DNA from: a bacterium
GTDB taxonomy: Bacteria > Hinthialibacterota > Hinthialibacteria > Hinthialibacterales > Hinthialibacteraceae
DNA length: 64,000 nucleotides
Reading direction: 5' to 3'
NCBI GenBank assembly: GCA_963662285.2
Contig: CAXXMV010000002.1
Span: 416,001 to 480,000, forward strand
Shown: piece after piece, positions 1,561 to 22,086 of the stretch
Layout of the letters: every line of letters starts with the position of its first letter
How positions within the stretch are numbered: position 1 is the stretch's first letter
Translations under genes and position numbers: made by a program
Notes under the pieces: model-generated
The model's database searches: none
What the model saw: the letters and a program-made list of their open reading frames with translations, nothing else
What the model was told of the DNA's origin: nothing

Positions 1561-3060
1561 TGGCGGGCCGCCTAGGATCAATACGCCGTAACTGGATTCT
1601 ACGTGTGGAGTACCCTGCCAACGCAGTTGATAGTCGGGTTCAGTGCCGCCTTCATCGTCATCGTTTACTGTGAAAGTGATGCCGATTGGACCAGTACCAA
1701 CGATCATTTCCTTTTTGAAACGTATTTCTCCAACCCATCCGGTATCGGTAATGGTGGCCCAACCCCACCAATCTTCATTATCCGTGTCGCCGATGAGCGG
1801 ACTGTTAGTGGTATTTGCATCCCGTGTGGCGTTGCCTGCAGTTAAGACAAACTGGCCTTCAATTAGATCTGCGCTGCCATAGCGGTTGTTGCTGGTATCT
1901 GCGCCATGATCCAGATCCTGATCGATGAATACCTCCATAGAGTCGTCATGCCATGTGTTGGCGTTATGCGATCCCTCCGGTTCGGTGTCGTGAAGAACTG
2001 TTTGATCTAAAACATCTGCAGCAACATATAACCAAACATCATCATGCATTGTGTAAATAGTGAATGATATATCACCTTCTAAAGCGGGCATGATGTCTTC
2101 AATTAAGATTCCACTCTTTGGCGTTATGGTTTCTGATGCAGCTAAACTCCAATCGGCTTCATCCATCACACCGTCAATAGTTACTGGTCCGTTGACAAGG
2201 GGCGCTGTGATTTCACGAGGACCAAAATAAAGCGTTCCATAAGTGGATTCCACATGCGCTAATCCGCACCACCTCAGTTGATAGCGGGGATCTGCGTCAT
2301 CGTCATCATCATTAATTGCTATATTGAAACCAATCGAAGAGCCTTTGGAGGGATTCCCGATGATGGAAAGTTTGATCTTGAATTCAACATCATAGCCATT
2401 GTCGGTTAATTCAGCGCGTCCATACCAGTCTGCATCTTCTCCAAAAGTGGGATTGCCCGCTTCGTTATCACGCCGGGCGTTAACTGCTGTTATAACGAAT
2501 TGCCCGCCAGTAGCGAATTCACGCGCCTGATCATCCGCCGATGCTTGAGTAAGCGATGTTTCGAATTTGCTGTTGTCGCCATCGATAAATATTTCTACTG
2601 AATCATCATTCCATGTGGATTCATCTTCACTGTCAGGAGCGGCGTCATTGTATGCAACGAAATCGTCCAACACTCGCACAGCGATATAAAGGTATTCTTC
2701 ATCATAGGCGGTATAAACTGTACAAGAGCAATCAGCGGTGCTATATGGGACGTCATCGGGGATATTTGAATCAACCAATCCACTCTGGATTACTCCTTCA
2801 TCGTCTAAGCCTATGTCCCATAGGATTGACCAAAAAGAGCCTGACGCGCCGGAACTGGTGGCGGAAAACTGCCACTCTATATCATCTATGTATCCATCAA
2901 CAATTGGCGTCAGCATTCCCTGGTCTGCGAAGAACGAAACCGGCTCAGTGACTTCAAAAGGAAACTCCGCGCAGAATACGGGAAGCGCTGAGATGCCAAG
3001 TAGAATCATGCATACTGTCAGGCTGCTTAATCTTTGATATAAAGTAAATTTCATAATCAT
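1531..3060 (-). CDS. Secreted acidic protein with two tandem CBM9-like (DOMON-type) sugar-binding domains
   Basis: Signal peptide; repeated motifs VDGYIDDIEW/IDGVMDEADW, WNDDSVEIFID/WHDDSMEVFID, IGFNIAINDDD/IGITFTVNDDD, YQLRW..HVES.YG; ends TDVKEWMIH. Confidence 0.8.
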   Translation of the reverse strand: MIMKFTLYQRLSSLTVCMILLGISALPVFCAEFPFEVTEPVSFFADQGMLTPIVDGYIDDIEWQFSATSSGASGSFWSILWDIGLDDEGVIQSGLVDSNIPDDVPYSTADCSCTVYTAYDEEYLYIAVRVLDDFVAYNDAAPDSEDESTWNDDSVEIFIDGDNSKFETSLTQASADDQAREFATGGQFVITAVNARRDNEAGNPTFGEDADWYGRAELTDNGYDVEFKIKLSIIGNPSKGSSIGFNIAINDDDDDADPRYQLRWCGLAHVESTYGTLYFGPREITAPLVNGPVTIDGVMDEADWSLAASETITPKSGILIEDIMPALEGDISFTIYTMHDDVWLYVAADVLDQTVLHDTEPEGSHNANTWHDDSMEVFIDQDLDHGADTSNNRYGSADLIEGQFVLTAGNATRDANTTNSPLIGDTDNEDWWGWATITDTGWVGEIRFKKEMIVGTGPIGITFTVNDDDEGGTEPDYQLRWQGTPHVESSYGVLILGGPPTDVKEWMIH

Positions 3061-3202
3061 CCTCCAAATTCATTGAAATGATGCGAAAGAATTCGCATAA
3101 TCAAATATTTCATACTTTTTTTTATAAGTCAACGGAGGTTAGGAGAAATATAAACAAATTATTGTTTTTATTTATATATGTAGATGCGTTAAAAAAACAG
3201 AC

Positions 3203-3237
3203 AAAAAAATCCCCTTTCTATAGGGGGTGAAAGGGGA
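3203..3237 (-). terminator. Intrinsic terminator of the 109-aa gene
   Basis: 9-bp stem TCCCCTTTC (3210-3218)/GAAAGGGGA (3229-3237) followed by T7 on the minus strand. Confidence 0.8.
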
Positions 3238-3254
3238 GAAATAGGGGGTGAAAG
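3220..3254. repeat. 14-bp direct repeat ATAGGGGGTGAAAG x2
   Basis: Identical copies at 3220-3233 and 3241-3254; a partial third G5 copy at about 3257-3268. Confidence 0.8.
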
Positions 3255-3339
3255 AATTGGGGGTTGAGTGATCCAATTCGTTTGTGAGCTTTTTTTAAGA
3301 ATTGCTCTGAAAGAGCATGTTTAGCACATTACGATTAAT

Positions 3340-15763: not shown

Positions 15764-15795
15764 AAAGAGGCGGGATTCTTCGATCCCGCCTCTTT
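15764..15795. terminator. Bidirectional intrinsic terminator
   Basis: AAAGAGGCGGGAT-TCTTCG-ATCCCGCCTCTTT perfect 13-bp stem between convergent genes. Confidence 0.85.
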
Positions 15796-15826: not shown

Positions 15827-18802
15827 TTAATTTGAATCCTCTTTGGTTGGTTCCTCGATCTTGATGACGCCTAAATCACGCACTTCTCCCGGTTGACCGG
15901 GGGCGATGGGGATGGTGGTTAATAATTTACCATATCCTCCGGCATCTTTGATTTTTATGATTCCTCCTTCTACCGGAACATGCTCTAATAAAAAAGTACC
16001 ATCTTTTAGATCGATTTCCGTTCTATGAAAAGCACGGTTTAAATTGTTGATGCCCAAACGGTCTTCGTGGATATTAAAATTATCCATTGTTATTTCAAAT
16101 AGAACATACGGTGGGTCTATATAATCTAACATTGTTCTCTCATAGATTAACTGCCCTTTTATTGAAAATGATTGAGTGTCATGAGTGAGAACAATCGTTT
16201 TTTCTTCATCCCTTTGAAGAGTAAAACCTTCGGATAATGTCGGCGCCGTATTTTCCGTACGTACAGATAAAAGGAAAGGACCGTCTGCAATTTCAATTTT
16301 GTCAAAATGAAATGCTCCTTCGGGATGCGAAACGTTCTGAACCAGGTAATCTCCGAATCTTGGATTACTCGGCAGTAAAAATATTGTATAGTCTTTTATG
16401 GGATTGTTATCATTCCCTAAAACAGTACCAGCAATGGATGCATAGCCATCATTGTACTTTTTCAAGACGATTTTAATATCTTTAGCAGCCCATTGAGTAA
16501 ATTCTTGACTGAATGCAAAATAATCATCCTTTGCTCTAATTGACAAGATGGTTTTTTCAAAATCATCTTTTTGGGGAATTTCCAAAAATGCATTGTAAGA
16601 ATTTTCAAAATTCAGAACAAATTGACCATTCTCATCGGTCCATGAATGAGCCCAGTAATCATAATCTTTACTCCTGGATTTCAAAATCCCTTGTATCGGA
16701 ATTCGGCTTAAAGGATTTTCTTTTTCATCTACCACCACACCGGCAAAGTAATCATTATTAACTTCCAGAACAAAATCCAAATTAGTCACTGGAATGTTTG
16801 GCTGAATGATTATATTCTTCTTTATCCCTCTATAGTAACCCTTCTTTTGTTGGGTATATATATTATATTCACCAGAAATAACCGCCCGTTGATATTTACC
16901 CTCCGCATCTGTTACTGTCCATATATCTTCCTTCTGCTTAATTTTTGGCTGAAAATAAACACCGATGTTTTCCATTGGTTTCCCAGAAGAATCAACTACT
17001 TTACCTTGAACCAGTGTTTTGGGATCGTATATAATCTCGATGTTCTTAATTTCTTCTCCAAGAGAAGGATCTATCTCGATTTGTCCTGAATCACCATACA
17101 AGGGATGATGGGATTGAAGGTAAAACTCATTATCCGAAACATAATAATCCAATATCAGTTTGAAGCGCCCTTCATTATCTGTTTTAAGAGACTGATCGAT
17201 TTTATTTTTGGGATATACTTTTGCGTAATTATGTTCTACGTCGCGCCAGATAAAAATTTCACATTTTTGTAAAGGTTGTCCTTCACTCAAACAAACCCGC
17301 CCAGAAACGCTCCATGATTTCTCTAAATAAAGGTTTATATTTTCAACCTGAGTTTCATTTTCTAATATAAGAATCGGATTCGGTTCCGGTTTGATCTTTG
17401 AATAGAGTAAGGGCGCAATCTCATGCCAAGAGATACTATTCCTTTTATATTCTGCATATATATCTGAATCCTTTCTATAATAATAAGGTGATTGAGTTAT
17501 GTAATTGATATGTGGATATATGGCAATAACGTAGGAACCGCCCGCCAACGAGTTGAAAAGGTAACTACCATCGGAATTAGTTGTTGTTTGCGCGTCTGGA
17601 GGTACGTTATACCTTTTTTTATCATAGTTCCAAAATACTTGTTTGTTTTTTAAAGTTTCGATATCGTATGCGATTACTTTTATATCACTGACTGGTTGTC
17701 CGCTATCTTTCTCAAAGACTCTCCCCGAAACAGAATATTCTCTATTCTCCAACGCCAGAGTTACTTCATGCCGGTCTTTAACAAGTTTGATTTCACATTG
17801 TGACTTTTCCCCGCTTGTATACCATACATGCTCAGCATAAATCACATATTCACCAGGAGGAACATCCTCGAAGGTAGTGAAACCGGCAGTATCGCTGGTT
17901 TCGCTGATCATCATAATGCTTCCAGTACCGGGTTTTGATTTCAAGGTAACTTTGGCGGAAAAAATTGGTTCGGATTCTACGTTTTGCACATAAACGATAA
18001 TCCGTCCTTTGGTTCTTAAATGCATAGTCGCTGGTTGTAATTCGGCATCTACATGAACAGCTTCTTCATGGATCAAATATCCAGCAGCGCTTACGCTGAC
18101 AAGATAACTACCCGCTGCGATAGGAGAGAATAATGCTCCGCCGTTTTCGCTAGTAGAACGGTCTTCCAAATCGGCGCCATCGACGCGCAACGTATCAGTG
18201 GTTGGAGTAATAGTGACTTTTGCTCCAACTACTGATTGTTCATCCTGGTTAATCACATTGAGTTGTAATGCCGCTTTGACGGCAACCAGCATTTCAAGAC
18301 TGTTGTCACCTGATGTCAGATTGCAGTCTAACTGGTTTCCAAACGTAGTGTTGTTGTTAGCGATAGTAACAGTAGTATTTACTGCATTCAGCCTATTTAG
18401 AGTAAGCGTTCCATCTTTATCCAGCGACTGTTGAAGTGCGTCATCTCCATTTTGGATGAATACTTGCTCGTTTGATAAGGGTTGACCTGACATATCACGA
18501 ACCATCAGGATGAGATTGGCTGTTTCCGGCTCGGTGACAATGGTTGACGATTGATCATCTGATTCGCCTGGCTGTTCATTGGCGTTGACAATGATATTGC
18601 TGGAATCAACCGTGATTTCTTCGCCTGCTTTGATCGATTTTTTAATCAATCCATCGTTACTGACAAACTGTACTTCCCCGGATTCCACTGAAATAGTCAT
18701 CGACTTGGGCGGCGCAGCCCATAAAGACAGTCCATGAATACACAATACCAACAACGCAATCACCAACGAATAATATGGGGAAAATCTTTTATATTTATAC
18801 AT
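15827..18802 (-). CDS. Secreted carboxypeptidase-regulatory-like (transthyretin/Cna-type) repeat protein with an N-terminal FecR C-terminal fragment
   Basis: AGGAG RBS and signal peptide; TISVESGEVQF...IKAGEEITV; many G.V.D..G.P....V / T...G.Y....L..G.Y repeats. Confidence 0.8.
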   Translation of the reverse strand: MYKYKRFSPYYSLVIALLVLCIHGLSLWAAPPKSMTISVESGEVQFVSNDGLIKKSIKAGEEITVDSSNIIVNANEQPGESDDQSSTIVTEPETANLILMVRDMSGQPLSNEQVFIQNGDDALQQSLDKDGTLTLNRLNAVNTTVTIANNNTTFGNQLDCNLTSGDNSLEMLVAVKAALQLNVINQDEQSVVGAKVTITPTTDTLRVDGADLEDRSTSENGGALFSPIAAGSYLVSVSAAGYLIHEEAVHVDAELQPATMHLRTKGRIIVYVQNVESEPIFSAKVTLKSKPGTGSIMMISETSDTAGFTTFEDVPPGEYVIYAEHVWYTSGEKSQCEIKLVKDRHEVTLALENREYSVSGRVFEKDSGQPVSDIKVIAYDIETLKNKQVFWNYDKKRYNVPPDAQTTTNSDGSYLFNSLAGGSYVIAIYPHINYITQSPYYYRKDSDIYAEYKRNSISWHEIAPLLYSKIKPEPNPILILENETQVENINLYLEKSWSVSGRVCLSEGQPLQKCEIFIWRDVEHNYAKVYPKNKIDQSLKTDNEGRFKLILDYYVSDNEFYLQSHHPLYGDSGQIEIDPSLGEEIKNIEIIYDPKTLVQGKVVDSSGKPMENIGVYFQPKIKQKEDIWTVTDAEGKYQRAVISGEYNIYTQQKKGYYRGIKKNIIIQPNIPVTNLDFVLEVNNDYFAGVVVDEKENPLSRIPIQGILKSRSKDYDYWAHSWTDENGQFVLNFENSYNAFLEIPQKDDFEKTILSIRAKDDYFAFSQEFTQWAAKDIKIVLKKYNDGYASIAGTVLGNDNNPIKDYTIFLLPSNPRFGDYLVQNVSHPEGAFHFDKIEIADGPFLLSVRTENTAPTLSEGFTLQRDEEKTIVLTHDTQSFSIKGQLIYERTMLDYIDPPYVLFEITMDNFNIHEDRLGINNLNRAFHRTEIDLKDGTFLLEHVPVEGGIIKIKDAGGYGKLLTTIPIAPGQPGEVRDLGVIKIEEPTKEDSN

Positions 18803-18833
18803 GATTTATCTCCTGATTTAGTTTTTACTGACG

Positions 18834-19424
18834 TTATTCATCTAGTCTTATATTGAACACTGTTCCTATCACCTCAATTTTACCAAACGGTGTTTGAACC
18901 AACATCAGCCGTTCAGTATCTTTGGCGGCTTCCACCCGGATCGCGCCTCCCTGCAGTGAGATATTCCGCTCGGATCCAAAGCGGACGGCGATCTGAGTTT
19001 CTGGTGAGCAGCTCAATAATGATTGGTCTTTCAAAAGAATTTTGGCCGAAATTCCTTTGGGAACCATAACAAAATTCCCGCTTTGTAATTCATTGAGCCA
19101 CAAGCGGGAAACTTGCGTTTCTTGTTGGTTGGATTCATAAACGAATTGGACTGATTGAACTGGTCCTGACACAGGTTGAACGATGTAGAATAAGCCTATA
19201 ATAACGAAGATTAGCAGCGTATAGGCTGCCGTATGACTCCAAGTTAATTGTGGGTGAAATAACCATGAAATAACAGATAATGGAGAACGGTTTTTTTTTG
19301 AAAATCGCGCTGAGGCTTCTTTCAAAAAACGTTTTTTTGCCAATTCCCGATTGTAAGAAACAGCGCATTGGTTGATGCTATCGCGTAATTTCTCTTCGAA
19401 TGGCGTTAAAGAATCTCTATTCAT
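18834..19424 (-). CDS. FecR-domain anti-sigma factor, C-terminally truncated
   Basis: One TM (AAYTLLIFVIIGLFYIV); LKDQSLL...RNISLQGG...VQTPFGKIEVIGTVFNI; overlaps the ECF sigma stop. Confidence 0.8.
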   Translation of the reverse strand: MNRDSLTPFEEKLRDSINQCAVSYNRELAKKRFLKEASARFSKKNRSPLSVISWLFHPQLTWSHTAAYTLLIFVIIGLFYIVQPVSGPVQSVQFVYESNQQETQVSRLWLNELQSGNFVMVPKGISAKILLKDQSLLSCSPETQIAVRFGSERNISLQGGAIRVEAAKDTERLMLVQTPFGKIEVIGTVFNIRLDE

Positions 19425-19987
19425 GATACTCGTTCCTCTATAATCGGCTGAATGGATTCACGCAGGCGTTTCCTAGCGCGACCCAGTAAGTTTTTTACAT
19501 GATCAATCGTGATTTCAAGCGTATTTGCAATTTGTTGATGAGATTGTTCTTCGAGAAGCCGCATTATAATTGCAGTACGTTGCAGAGGAGGCATGTTTTG
19601 TATTTCAGATTCAATAGTCTGACGAATGCGTTTTTCATGTAAATGTGTTAATGGGCATTTTTCATCCTGGTTGACATCATCCACCGTTGGAGCAATTTGA
19701 TGCAGCGATACGGTTAATAAGCCCTTTTTCTTCATACGATCAATGCAGCGGTTTCGTACAATACGGCGTAAATACGCTGAAAGAGTACCCTGCTCTTGTT
19801 TATAACGGCCTGAGCGTAAAGCCTCTAAAAAACTAATAAGCGATTCTTGTATGATATCTTCGGCGTCGTTCACCTGGCCTAAAAGCATATAACTAAGCCG
19901 CATTAGTGAATCGGCGTAGCGTTCAAAGAGTTCTTCGAATGCGCCGGGATAGCCCTCTATGAGCCTGTTTTCCAATGAATCGTTCAC
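19421..19987 (-). CDS. ECF RNA polymerase sigma factor
   Basis: AFEELFERY, DAEDIIQE (region 2), YLRRIVRNRCID, region 4 SHQQIANTL..VKNLLGRARKRLRE. Confidence 0.93.
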   Translation of the reverse strand: MNDSLENRLIEGYPGAFEELFERYADSLMRLSYMLLGQVNDAEDIIQESLISFLEALRSGRYKQEQGTLSAYLRRIVRNRCIDRMKKKGLLTVSLHQIAPTVDDVNQDEKCPLTHLHEKRIRQTIESEIQNMPPLQRTAIIMRLLEEQSHQQIANTLEITIDHVKNLLGRARKRLRESIQPIIEERVS

Positions 19988-20166
19988 GAGCGCTCCATCT
20001 AATTGTTTATTGCATCTTAACCTTTATACGATAATTTCAGAAAAAGGGTAGCAAAGCAATTTTATTACTTGATATGAATGTAAATTGAGATTGGATTCAT
20101 CTTGTAATGATAAAGGAATAAATTTGAGGGAAAATGTGATTATAAACGAAAATACGGCTCTATTGC

Positions 20167-22086
20167 TTATCGAACGATTTGATAGACCACAATTTGTCCG
20201 GGATTATCTGGATAGGCGTCGAAAACCATTTGTAGATGCGCTTGGTTTTTATCCATCCATTGTTGAAGAAAATCGCCTAGCGGCCAGCCGTAGGGGCCAT
20301 AGGATTTTCGTAGACGGTTTAATTCTGACTGGTTGAACAATATATGGGTGATGGTTCGATCCAAACCTTTTTCCAGGGGATGGTGGTTGAATACGGTTGG
20401 CGCGATGGCTTCAAAACGCGCTCCGTAGGATTGCGCTTCTCCAACGAATAACACCCGGCCAACGCGGCGGCCTTCCTCTTTTTGCAGGTTCAGCCAATCG
20501 ATGGCTCTGTAATGAGGAACCCTTTTAGCCAGGTACATATCTTCCAGCATAGGTTGGACGAGATAACCAGCGGTTTCATCTTTTAGTATTATGGTTGTGA
20601 TGCCCAAAATTTGTATGGCTGCTATTACTAGAGCGAAACCTCTAATAGCAATATCGGCGCCGTCCCTGGATAGGACATAAATTCCATAGCCGCCCAGCAG
20701 TGCCATCAGGGGCAGGATCGATGCCAGGAAGCGGTCATTTCTCTGCGTCAAAAAGAACCAGGCGCAATATGCTGTGGTCATGAATATTATTGACCTGTAT
20801 ATGGGGTGGTTTCTGGCAGTTTTCCAAATCAATGGAATGCCCAGCAGCCATAATGCCGAGAATCCTAATGGGATGGATTGAGCAAGGCTTTTCTGAAATG
20901 GCAGTGACATTATATCCAATGTAATGTTCCATGTGGAACTTAATTTTGGCGCATGAACCAGCGAGAACATTTCGGAAAAGAAATCCGGTGAATTTACGAA
21001 GTATGGCGTAAGCAGTGGGAACACAGGATTTTGATATAAAAACCAATTACGGATTGCCCAAGGCAGGAAGATCGCAACGCCGCCGCATAAAATCAGGAAT
21101 AATGGAACAAATATGCGTTTTTGAAGCGTGTTCTTTATATCAAATAATATCATTACACAGAAAGGCAAGCCGATGGATAGCGCAGCGATATATTTTGATC
21201 CAAAAGCGAAACCCAACGCAGCCGCCATCATTACCGCATCTATCGGGCGTTTTTCGGTTCGGTATCGCTCATAGGCCATCAGTAATATTATGGCTGAGGC
21301 GCTTAATGCCAGATCAATGTTGGCCTGGATTATCAGGCGCTGGGTCAGTCCGGTAGCCAGAAAAAAAAGAGGCGCCAACAGGTTATTGGAAGGTATGCCC
21401 CATATTCGGCCTAGCCTCCATACCGCTAAAGCCGCAATGCAGGCGAATAGCAGATTTATGGCAGTGCATCCAGCCGGGCTTCGCGAGGCCAGAGGCCACA
21501 TATAAAGCAATTCCGTATTCATGGGAAAAGCGGCGTAGACATTATATGGAAAGGCAACCCATGATCCTGTTTTTATATAATGATCCGGCGCCGCGAGATG
21601 GTATTCATGCGCATCATACCCCACTGGGGGTAAAACGGCGGCTATGATTCCAAGTAATAACACGACAGTTAATAGGGTGAGTTCCAGGCGGGATAGGCTC
21701 TGTAGATCAAGTTTGTAATTCGCTAAATCAATTATTCTGTTGCGCCACCAACCCCAGGAGGCGAGAATTAAGATTAGAGATGAGCCGTAGATCATCCAGG
21801 GGAAAGCCAGATGGATGGTTAATAATATAAACGCATAGGCGCTGGCCAGGCACAGAGATAGAAAACTGGCGTAAATCAGGCGCTCAATATTATCAAGTGA
21901 TTGGTTCGATGAAATCCGGTCTAGCAACAGGTTGGCAATTGGAAAGAATGATAAAAGTGGAAGCAGACCCAACAGCAGCGCCCGCAGATGTAATGTCGGC
22001 AATAGCAGCCAGGGATTGGCGTATAACAGGACGCCAAGAATGATTATCGCTAAGGCAAGCGTGAATATGGGTTGCTTTGGTTTCAT
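20167..22086 (-). CDS. Polytopic membrane protein, GT-C-fold glycosyltransferase-like
   Basis: More than 12 TM segments; loop PPVGYDAHEYHL, FP.NTELLY, GSKY, PWAIRNW...NPVFP, RFL..LP. Confidence 0.65.
   Translation of the reverse strand: MKPKQPIFTLALAIIILGVLLYANPWLLLPTLHLRALLLGLLPLLSFFPIANLLLDRISSNQSLDNIERLIYASFLSLCLASAYAFILLTIHLAFPWMIYGSSLILILASWGWWRNRIIDLANYKLDLQSLSRLELTLLTVVLLLGIIAAVLPPVGYDAHEYHLAAPDHYIKTGSWVAFPYNVYAAFPMNTELLYMWPLASRSPAGCTAINLLFACIAALAVWRLGRIWGIPSNNLLAPLFFLATGLTQRLIIQANIDLALSASAIILLMAYERYRTEKRPIDAVMMAAALGFAFGSKYIAALSIGLPFCVMILFDIKNTLQKRIFVPLFLILCGGVAIFLPWAIRNWFLYQNPVFPLLTPYFVNSPDFFSEMFSLVHAPKLSSTWNITLDIMSLPFQKSLAQSIPLGFSALWLLGIPLIWKTARNHPIYRSIIFMTTAYCAWFFLTQRNDRFLASILPLMALLGGYGIYVLSRDGADIAIRGFALVIAAIQILGITTIILKDETAGYLVQPMLEDMYLAKRVPHYRAIDWLNLQKEEGRRVGRVLFVGEAQSYGARFEAIAPTVFNHHPLEKGLDRTITHILFNQSELNRLRKSYGPYGWPLGDFLQQWMDKNQAHLQMVFDAYPDNPGQIVVYQIVR

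Follow-up and report, generated by a model that had tools for sequence, protein, structure and literature searches.

Regulators of the FecR type are among the commonest partners of extracytoplasmic function (ECF) sigma factors. According to the passages on FecR in a recent study (PMC12036975), the Escherichia coli protein cleaves itself at G181/T182, its C-terminal fragment stays bound and blocks further cleavage, and FecA together with TonB pulls this fragment away, which leads to stepwise cuts, with RseP acting last, and to active FecI. In this account the active form of FecR is a non-covalent pair of fragments, and the separation of the two is the signalling event (PMC12036975). The juxta-membrane subdomain of PupR is described as a pair of 7-stranded sheets that is twisted and resembles a beta-solenoid (PMC7186176), and such a stack of hairpins could plausibly be divided between two chains. 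Here we describe a locus in a 64,000-nucleotide stretch of DNA from a bacterium of the phylum Hinthialibacterota (contig CAXXMV010000002.1 of assembly GCA_963662285.2; hereafter the window), in which an ECF sigma gene is followed by the gene of a FecR-type anti-sigma factor that ends inside its FecR domain, and then by the gene of a large repeat protein. The comparisons described below make it very probable that the products of the latter two genes form one FecR domain.

The locus consists of three open reading frames (ORFs), which are arranged head to tail on the minus strand and encode the sigma factor, the anti-sigma factor and the large protein. The layout and coordinates were the same in the initial annotation, and both the ORF list and the Pfam matches agree with them. 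The ATG of the anti-sigma gene and the stop codon of the sigma gene overlap by 4 nt, while an AGGAG ribosome-binding site, as had been claimed, precedes the ATG of the large gene by 7 nt. The features of the three genes are as follows (window positions; aa, amino acids).

19421-19987, minus strand: ECF sigma factor, 188 aa (Pfam Sigma70_r2, 2.2e-13, and Sigma70_r4_2, 4.2e-12)
18834-19424, minus strand: FecR-type anti-sigma factor, 196 aa, whose N-terminus is predicted to be cytoplasmic, with a single transmembrane helix and a FecR domain of which the first two thirds are present
19176-19235, minus strand: predicted transmembrane helix of the anti-sigma factor, about aa 64-83 (hydrophobic stretch in the translation, from which the topology is deduced)
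18843-19058, minus strand: partial FecR domain of the anti-sigma factor, aa 123-194 (Pfam stretch, profile positions 7-82 of 97)
18861-18866, minus strand: Gly187-Thr188, corresponding to the dipeptide at which FecR and FoxR cleave themselves (equated with E. coli G181/T182 according to the FecR passages of PMC12036975)
18803-18833, minus strand: intergenic junction of 31 nt, with the anti-sigma stop codon just upstream and AGGAG at 18810-18814
15827-18802, minus strand: large partner protein, 991 aa (ORF and Pfam; AlphaFold2 (AF2) model with a helix at 9-26, four short strands in 35-65 and a beta-rich part at 94-983)
18716-18778, minus strand: N-terminal hydrophobic helix of the large protein, aa 9-29 (helix 9-26 in the AF2 model), a signal anchor or signal peptide
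18596-18700, minus strand: predicted FecR-completing strands of the large protein, aa 35-69, MTISVESGEVQFVS...KSIKAGEEITVDS (conservation, profile alignment, fused relative P0043 and complex model)
15854-18523, minus strand: about 9-10 tandem CarboxypepD_reg/transthyretin-like beta-sandwiches of the large protein, aa 94-983 (PF13620, 3.3e-42), with a helical insert at aa 446-469

The match of the anti-sigma factor to the Pfam FecR family (PF04773) scored 43.4 bits (E = 4.7e-11) against a cut-off of 24, which places the protein in the family. However, the match covered only positions 7-82 of the 97-position profile, while in complete paralogues and in fused relatives it reached 94-97, and so the early end of the FecR domain behind a transmembrane helix, which had been noticed in the initial annotation, was borne out. 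The protein ends with ...IEVIGTVFNIRLDE (...GKIEVIGTVFNIRLDE) before the stop codon, nine residues past the Gly of the conserved Gly-Thr. The initial annotation had placed the split at the Gly-Thr itself, but the actual break is one strand later, beyond the Gly-Thr hairpin. G187, T188 and F190 are invariant in all 86 aligned split anti-sigma factors, and each of the 86 contains, before its FecR part, a 19-residue window with a Kyte-Doolittle mean of at least 1.6. The window copy matched the model of E. coli FecR (NF007296) at positions 110-184 of 313. If autoproteolysis at the Gly-Thr happened here, it would release only a C-terminal peptide of 9 residues.

The continuation of the FecR domain was recognized at the start of the next gene. 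In the complete FecR paralogues of the same genome the sequence past G-T-x-F-x-V continues as ...tVtVyqGsVrV......LtkGdsl, and this is also the pattern at the starts of the large proteins; in the window copy, a basic stretch and the hydrophobic helix are followed by SMTISVESGEVQFVSNDGLIKKSIKAGEEITV. The profile of the split anti-sigma factors aligned in hhalign to the complete paralogues with a probability of 98.6% (E = 8.6e-16) and ended at template column 221, and a helix-trimmed profile of eight N-termini of large proteins aligned best to columns 223-254. When a profile of 26 such N-termini was compared with the 20,698 ORFs of the genome, the four large proteins of its split loci came first (E of 1e-20 to 3e-25), and they were followed by two complete FecR anti-sigma factors, matched right after the G-T strand (residues 200-253 with 22.3 bits, and residues 182-230 with 17.9 bits). 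The region of the 22.3-bit paralogue that contains its helix and first hairpin scored 3.0 bits only. The initial annotation had proposed that the concatenated halves be compared with a FecR profile, and this was done using our own 159-position hidden Markov model (HMM), built from 56 complete FecR regions with the fused proteins left out. The anti-sigma factors of the four split loci of the genome scored 78.8, 79.5, 65.5 and 63.5 bits alone, and 97.5, 95.7, 85.1 and 74.5 bits after the halves were joined in silico, each as a single domain with model starts at 12-25 and ends at 146-152. In controls, in which an internal piece of the large protein was joined instead, the scores were 81.3, 78.4, 64.7 and 63.6 bits. 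Hence, the gain from joining was 11.0-19.6 bits, compared with -1.1 to +2.5 bits in the controls.

The same domain was also found in one chain. Two fused proteins of 1361 aa, P0043 and P0048, matched the split anti-sigma profile with E values of 7.6e-34 and 2.2e-33. They share the N-terminus of the split anti-sigma factors, and each contains a single transmembrane helix, a Pfam FecR match that is complete (5-96 and 6-96 of 97) and six CarboxypepD_reg stretches. Their junction contains no hydrophobic helix and reads ...GTVFDVDVSSTPPTTAKINVKAGKV...; across the position where a stop, a start and a helix occur in the split genes, the sequence is ...GTVFDVDVSSTPPTTAKINVKAGKVLLIKGDESKTLAAGRRAVV.... 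BLASTP aligned residues 194-251 of P0043 with residues 7-66 of the large protein of the window, and aa 35-69 of the latter correspond to P0043 residues 224 onward, which lie inside its Pfam FecR match. At the fused locus L046 the sigma gene lies directly upstream, and a fused frame of 1420 aa (L022) is present in genome G020 of the same order. Fused genes are rare, as they made up 2 of the 150 best clusters and one locus in 35 genomes, and a related-locus search with P0043 returned only its own contig.

The initial annotation had suggested that the same split be sought in paralogous loci and related genomes, and it was found in both. When the own genome (7.29 Mb in 8 contigs) was searched with PF04773, nine matches were obtained, of which five were complete to 94-97 and four ended at 83-89; the end at 89 in one truncated match includes a short read-through of the TAA stop. 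All four truncated loci consist of a sigma gene, an anti-sigma gene for about 180-210 aa ending after G-T-x-F, and a gene for a protein of about 970-1250 aa, which starts with a hydrophobic helix and a V.V..G.V motif. The profile of the 86 split anti-sigma factors matched 27 of the 35 genomes of the phylum at E <= 1e-10. This tally includes complete FecR paralogues and is therefore not taken as a count of splits, for which only opened loci were used. These comprised 26 unique split loci in 18 of the 35 genomes, four in the own genome and 22 in 17 others. The 18 genomes belong to three families of one order (fourteen to f1, two to f2 and two to f3), while in the nine genomes of families f4, f5 and f6 no split locus was opened, the single match (L039) being a complete FecR.

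The architecture was constant among the 26 loci. In each of them the product of the next gene begins with M(R), which is followed by some 20 hydrophobic residues, then by a polar linker (about 13 residues) and by the motif V.V.V.EG.V ... AGE, and the split lies 5-24 residues after the invariant G-T-x-F. Although the 26 N-termini of the large proteins share only 15-27% identity with the window copy, V39, G42 and V44 (numbered as in the window copy) never vary among them, and G60 is nearly invariant. At the other loci the anti-sigma gene and the large gene overlap by 4, 19 or 50 nt, or are separated by as much as 304 nt (ORFs as called, before starts were re-picked). Because the spacing varies in this way, the junctions are old and independently drifted, rather than products of a recent nonsense mutation. 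The view of the initial annotation that the junction is not a simple frameshift is also supported by the own start and helix of the large gene at each of the 26 loci. Programmed read-through or frameshifting was considered as well, and was ruled out by the varying gap and frame and by the hydrophobic helix between the halves. An upstream sigma gene, with at least 120 nt of sequence before it, was present in 23 of the 27 loci scanned, which were the 26 split loci and the fused L046 (itself among the 23). The remaining four had no such sigma match; in one of these, L011, a sigma gene lies too near the end of the locus.

The split was also frequent among public protein clusters. When 1.84 billion cluster representatives were searched exhaustively in HMMER with an 8-sequence anti-sigma profile, there were 26,390 matches at E <= 1e-3, 310 at E <= 1e-10 and 53 at E <= 1e-30; a word-indexed protein search with the anti-sigma profile gave 10 matches. 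Among the best 150 clusters of the exhaustive search, 90 ended within 25 residues past G[TS]xF and 2 were fused. The tails past G[TS]xF in 92 split-type proteins (the 90 and two paralogues from the own genome) were 5 to 24 residues long, with 6 as the commonest length (39 of 92). One cluster of the L004 type, P0075, carries the NCBI label Candidatus Omnitrophica/Omnitrophota, from a metagenome-assembled genome and unverified, which was the sole organism label seen among the split anti-sigma factors.

Several other FecR loci were observed along with the split ones. Two complete FecR anti-sigma loci of the own genome, L003 and L005, are each followed by a protein of about 200 aa (L003, 662-1294, and L005, 666-1271, in plus-strand coordinates, both minus), the N-terminus of which resembles a type IV prepilin or pseudopilin leader (F-T-L-x-E-L-L-I...) and which is a different recurring FecR partner. 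The complete FecR anti-sigma factor at L001 (contig C6) is followed, with overlapping stop and start codons, by a protein (1977-3269) that has 431 aa or more and begins like a signal peptide. From such gene orders, large envelope proteins 3' of FecR anti-sigma factors seem to be usual in this genome, whether or not the FecR domain is split. L009 (1294-3288) encodes a FecR-domain protein without an anti-sigma N-terminus, with a signal-peptide-like start, FecR at profile positions 1-94 and a low-complexity tail of more than 250 residues rich in Thr, Ser, Pro and Arg.

To describe the composite domain at the level of structure, the periplasmic region of a fused relative was modelled with AF2 from a 42-row alignment. 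The model had a mean predicted local distance difference test (pLDDT) value of 80.9, and contained five beta-strands past the split point, in a block with pLDDT of 95-96. Only four chains of the Protein Data Bank were matched by this model in Foldseek at E <= 1e-3, which were 4m0h_B (5e-8), 4m0h_A, 4m0n and PupR 6ovk_R (2.1e-6), with root-mean-square deviations of 2.0-2.5 A over 127-133 columns, and all of them are FecR-type regulators. On this model the short anti-sigma factor would therefore lack about a third of its fold.

The docking of the two halves had also been proposed in the initial annotation. The complex prediction for residues 86-196 of the anti-sigma factor and 30-85 of the large protein had an ipSAE interface score of 0.86, compared with 0.00 for the best of three controls; 58 of 80 solved complexes attain this value, as do 2 of 110 mismatched pairs, although these rates are rough here, because our own alignments were used. 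Three runs agreed in at least 98% of contacts, and the pLDDT of the partner was at least 77. In the modelled interface residues 159-160 and 178-196 of the anti-sigma factor face residues 30-49, 57, 65, 67 and 69 of the large protein, and the tightest pairs, between residues 181-185 and 44-49, correspond to a predicted strand pairing. When the large protein was modelled alone, with low confidence, residues 22-92 had pLDDT below 50; in the complex the value for the FecR-completing segment was 77-78. The claim that the missing strands are supplied in trans is thus supported by the profiles, the docking and the fused relatives, but their number is about five and not two.

The remainder of the large protein is built of repeats. 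The match to PF13620 (CarboxypepD_reg) had 143.1 bits against a cut-off of 32.3 (E = 3.3e-42) and extended over six stretches, which places the protein in this family and agrees with the repeats named in the initial annotation. In the C-terminal 257 residues (735-991), which have no Pfam annotation, the Atlas features were all CarboxypepD_reg clusters (0.93-0.95), and a low-complexity linker occupies about residues 70-93. No enzymatic or ligand-binding domain was recognized, as Pfam and Atlas show only CarboxypepD_reg/transthyretin-like families. The number of sandwiches is approximate, because the AF2 model of the whole protein has low confidence (mean pLDDT 63.2, 6-row alignment) and was used for rough domain counting only. 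The protein is also highly diverged: a word-indexed search returned the protein itself, a paralogue on contig C8 (36% identity) and one weak match, and a related-locus search seeded with the window large protein alone returned no relatives.

The initial annotation had described the large protein as secreted with a full signal peptide. A hydrophobic segment is indeed present at its N-terminus, but it is more likely an uncleaved helix that anchors the protein in the membrane. The uncharged stretch of the 26 N-termini has a median length of 20.5 residues, and their best 19-residue Kyte-Doolittle mean has a median of 2.6 (in three of the 26 rows the regular expression put the stretch in the wrong place). 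By eye, a small-x-small site is missing in most of the 26, while the window copy has a possible LWA/A site. A signal anchor, if true, would hold the large protein beside the anti-sigma factor in the inner membrane.

To analyze the relation between the split and fused forms, 103 N-terminal parts were cut at one common point and placed in a quick maximum-likelihood tree. The two fused proteins were placed inside the main split clade, at values of 80-90 in the Shimodaira-Hasegawa-like approximate likelihood ratio test (SH-aLRT), none of them starred. The approximately unbiased (AU) test was then applied to a subsample of 38 rows (27 split, 2 fused and 9 complete), which was chosen after the first tree, and the tested group was also named after the tree had been seen. 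The placement of split and fused forms in one clade was not rejected (delta lnL 1.87, p 0.413), while a clade of split forms alone, with the fused ones outside, was disfavoured (delta lnL 35.97, p 0.0107). Given these outcomes of the tree and the AU test, the fused genes are more likely secondary re-fusions than the ancestral form, or else there were several fissions; the fused forms are probably re-fusions. Either way, the same loop would have been both opened and closed in evolution. A split subfamily of the L006 type (P0003, P0005, P0097, P0113, P0146, P0083 and P0124) groups with complete FecRs (own L001 and P0107) rather than with the main split clade, with SH-aLRT of 90 and 81 in two trees. 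This might mean that the same loop was split a second time, independently, although a single clade of all split forms was not rejected (p 0.413). The proposal that complete FecRs use twin-arginine translocation (Tat) but split ones do not was rejected, since twin arginines near the helix were found in 19 of 86 split versus 21 of 50 complete or fused proteins, which is not a clean separation; the latter set comprises the 50 of 62 in which a script found the helix, and kinship is uncorrected.

The sigma factor and the sequences around the operon were then compared with known signals. The sigma factor belongs to the sigma70-ECF family (TIGR02937, 87.1 bits over a cut-off of 42.9), and its best subfamily was TIGR02985 (FecI-like/Bacteroidetes-type), the score for which, 105.4 bits, is under the cut-off of 126.4 and leaves it outside that subfamily. 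Two further features flank the genes.

20025-20053, minus strand: ECF-type promoter-like dyad, TGCTAC and a T-tract, N17, CGTATA, with its start 66 nt before the sigma start codon (consensus-type match)
15764-15795, no strand: palindromic hairpin with a perfect stem of 14 bp (14 pairs, 7 GC), an A-run before and a T-run after it (consensus-type match only)

The promoter-like sequence, read from 20053 to 20025, is TGCTACCCTTTTTCTGAAATTATCGTATA. Of 23 loci, 9 matched the regular expression TG[CT][CT]A[CT]-N15-19-NGTAT[AT] upstream of their sigma gene, with near-variants seen by eye in most others, and the related dyads (TGTCAC/TGTTAT and a T-tract ... CGTATA) are placed at -35 to -88 from the sigma start. 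Besides the window, a dyad of TG(T/C)(C/T)A(C/T) and a T-tract with (C)GTATA about 17 nt on was noted at L004, L007, L012, L013, L015, L016, L019, L025, L032, L043 and L046. Such sites lie before three of the four split-system sigma genes of the own genome, in which no other convincing site was seen; four exact patterns had 12, 12, 5 and 11 matches in total, which is near chance expectation, and these were mostly not before genes. As the dyad count was 6 against a shuffle maximum of 6, without excess, the case for the motif is based on the extended match and its constant position. This suggests that the sigma factor may transcribe its own operon from the putative promoter. At the other end, the hairpin lies between the large gene and a convergent 3-keto-disaccharide hydrolase gene, and is likely a bidirectional terminator that closes the operon.

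The Pfam matches of the neighbouring genes were to TctC, the 3-keto-disaccharide hydrolase, RuvX, a radical SAM protein and RNase III. The neighbours also include an ORF of 639 aa (20167-22086, minus), directly upstream of the operon on the same strand, which has many hydrophobic stretches and no Pfam match at E <= 1e-5. No TonB-dependent transducer was found among the genes adjoining the locus, as the initial annotation had already stated, and the seven TonB_dep_Rec barrel matches of the genome are on contigs C1 and C6, while the window is on C2. Pfam showed no FecR_C or STN on the anti-sigma factor or the large protein, and no STN above the cut-off genome-wide, where the best score was 25.8 bits versus a cut-off of 28.4. 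Since no STN exceeds the cut-off in the genome and the TonB-dependent barrels are on other contigs, the trigger would not be a classical transducer. A site-2 protease family member (Peptidase_M50) is encoded in the genome by a 595-aa frame (4.4e-37).

The gene layout, the truncation and its recurrence, the homology of both halves to one domain, the fused relatives and the confidently docked model are all computational results. We infer that the two chains assemble in the cell, that the N-terminus of the anti-sigma factor holds the sigma factor, that loss of the large protein from the complex leads to proteolysis of the anti-sigma factor, and that the sigma factor controls its own operon; the kind of signal is likewise inferred. 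The anti-sigma factor would consist of a cytoplasmic N-terminus, a membrane helix and the first part of a periplasmic FecR beta-solenoid. Its partner of about 1000 aa would be anchored to the inner membrane through a helix at its own N-terminus, its first 35 or so periplasmic residues would provide the last solenoid strands (four short ones in the window model, five in the fused relative), and its 9-10 transthyretin-like sandwiches would reach into the periplasm. The two polypeptides would thus build one FecR domain by strand complementation. As long as the large protein caps the anti-sigma factor, the latter would be protected and the ECF sigma factor held; when the cap is lost, be it through force on the repeats, degradation, unfolding or absence, the partial domain could be clipped by a periplasmic protease. 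The membrane stump could then be cut by an RseP-type site-2 protease, and the freed sigma factor would transcribe its own three-gene operon from the TGCTAC...CGTATA promoter. The order of these steps, from cap loss to proteolysis, is modelled on the analogy with FecR. A conserved gene fission of a FecR-type anti-sigma factor that works by such cap loss is, in our view, a probable explanation of the locus.

A more specific proposal is offered tentatively, as one that we consider rather less likely to be right in all its parts. In it, the locus would represent a hard-wired form of the two-fragment FecR state, whose latch is a four- to five-strand solenoid piece of a membrane-tethered repeat protein. 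Pulling, unfolding or degradation would withdraw the strands and expose the anti-sigma factor to proteolysis with no TonB or outer-membrane transducer, and several paralogous systems would operate side by side, insulated from each other. Cleavage at the Gly-Thr could additionally clip the last strand of 9 residues and give a three-piece domain, and the domain would have been both split and re-joined at the same loop.

Several results weigh against the explanation by conserved fission and cap loss. The support is computational throughout, and among the sequencing runs on record the stretch of the locus occurs in two DNA runs from one study but in no RNA run. The cytoplasmic part of the anti-sigma factor matched no anti-sigma domain model in Pfam, and so its binding to the sigma factor is deduced from its position. 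Because the split lies one strand past the Gly-Thr, the pair is not an exact copy of the autocleaved state, and the logic of a protective cap comes from a TonB-dependent system, while no transducer was found here. The high docking score may reflect the memory of the model for solved single-chain FecR folds (4m0n, 6ovk); since these folds are already solved, the docking shows that the pieces fit a known fold rather than that they bind in the cell. In hhalign with eight sequences, the segment past the Gly-Thr scored 21.7 (E = 0.0031) versus 20.5 (E = 0.0055) for the first hairpin of FecR, and the first hairpin was favoured when the helix was included (E = 1.9e-4); this ambiguity of placement was settled only by the 26-sequence profile. 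Pfam FecR was matched in none of eight isolated 110-aa N-termini of large proteins, although this is expected, because only about 15 profile positions are covered by them.

An alternative that we regard as unlikely, yet as the strongest of those considered, accepts the same composite domain but sees in it a homeostat for the large protein itself. The uncapped anti-sigma factor would be unstable, and the sigma factor would stay active until every copy is capped, so that loss of the large protein would simply restore its own synthesis with no outside signal sensed. This is consistent with the occurrence of the promoter-like motif before three of the four sigma genes of the split systems and at no other convincing site, and with a large protein that shows only sandwich repeats. 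The scans used crude exact patterns, and because these would miss diverged sites the empty regulon is weak evidence. On the other hand, a genome can contain up to four split systems, whose repeat proteins are at most 36% identical, and this fits diversified sensing better.

It is improbable, though less far-fetched than an artefact, that there is no functional complementation, that the short anti-sigma factor acts alone, and that the FecR-like strands of the co-transcribed envelope protein are a relic of an old fusion. Such a relic would agree with the silence of Pfam on the N-terminus of the large protein and with the possibility that high complex scores stem from fold memory, and the binding of the two chains is indeed a prediction. 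However, a relic should decay, yet V39, G42 and V44 stayed invariant, and G60 nearly so, in homologues as distant as described above, and in 90 clusters the position of the break varies by a few residues only. Moreover, the truncated part would lack the five core strands that were modelled with high confidence in the fused relative, and the fused forms show the canonical complete domain. The third explanation, by an assembly error, a frameshift or a recent pseudogenisation of a fused gene, could appeal to the 1361-aa relatives, but it is practically eliminated by recurrence, as 26 independent loci in 18 genomes differ in junction length and frame and have their own starts and a helix of about 20 residues that is absent from the fused form, and as split proteins outnumber fused ones by 90 to 2 in the best 150 clusters. 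The two outcomes that the initial annotation had named as contrary to its proposal, an N-terminus that does not align or dock and a split that is unique to this assembly among single fused genes, were thus not observed.

The split system is made of known parts, which are the ECF sigma factor, the FecR domain and the CarboxypepD_reg repeats, and the logic proposed for it mirrors autocleaved FecR. What is new is a FecR domain divided between two genes at a conserved position, with its distal piece on a giant, probably membrane-tethered repeat protein and no TonB-dependent transducer. A published account of a FecR domain split with a CarboxypepD_reg partner was not found in the full-text literature (supplementary tables lie outside this search), and the FecR passages of the ECF re-classification paper mention no split (PMC7826278). 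A natural split family would show that the FecR solenoid can work as two chains and mark where it is divisible, while the existence of fused and split versions of one system allows a direct comparison. It would also extend FecR-type signalling to partners other than TonB-dependent transducers, and provide a compact pair for studying strand-complementation latches in signal transduction. For annotation, it is a warning that "FecR domain-containing proteins" of about 200 aa and their "carboxypeptidase regulatory-like" neighbours of about 1000 aa may be two halves of one sensor.

Among the described systems, FecI-FecR-FecA and the Pseudomonas aeruginosa FoxR type are similar to the split system in having an ECF sigma factor beside a single-pass FecR-domain regulator with a Gly-Thr. 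E. coli FecR works as two non-covalently bound periplasmic fragments, of which the distal one, according to the FecR passages of PMC12036975, shields the membrane fragment from the site-1 protease and RseP. Here, in contrast, the fragments are separate gene products rather than products of autoproteolysis, and the break is one strand past the Gly-Thr. The distal piece has its own membrane helix, while the FecR fragment is exported by Tat together with the N-terminal fragment, and about 900 aa of sandwich repeats take the place of the STN-like domain. We file the split system as one that works like FecR, though it has neither of two features of cell-surface signalling, an STN-like subdomain and a transducer, nor a complete domain in a single chain. 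The fold of PupR (6OVK/6OVM) and of the putative Parabacteroides anti-sigma factor BDI_1681 (4M0N/4M0H) is the same as in the model of the fused relative, but both are single polypeptides that continue into an STN-like or FecR_C subdomain, and the split system has neither. P0043 and P0048 share with the split pair the N-terminus, the helix, the FecR core, the repeats and the upstream sigma gene, but they are one chain with no second helix. In the donor-strand complementation of chaperone-usher pili and in split-protein reassembly, an incomplete beta-sandwich is completed by strands of another chain; these are unrelated families with no role in the control of transcription. In the three-component ECF systems RseA-RseB (sigma-E) and CnrY-CnrX (CnrH), the membrane anti-sigma factor is modulated in its stability or activity by another protein of the envelope, a separate periplasmic partner. 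Partners of the RseB or CnrX type bind a complete anti-sigma domain as an independent fold, whereas the partner described here is proposed to be part of the anti-sigma factor's own fold.

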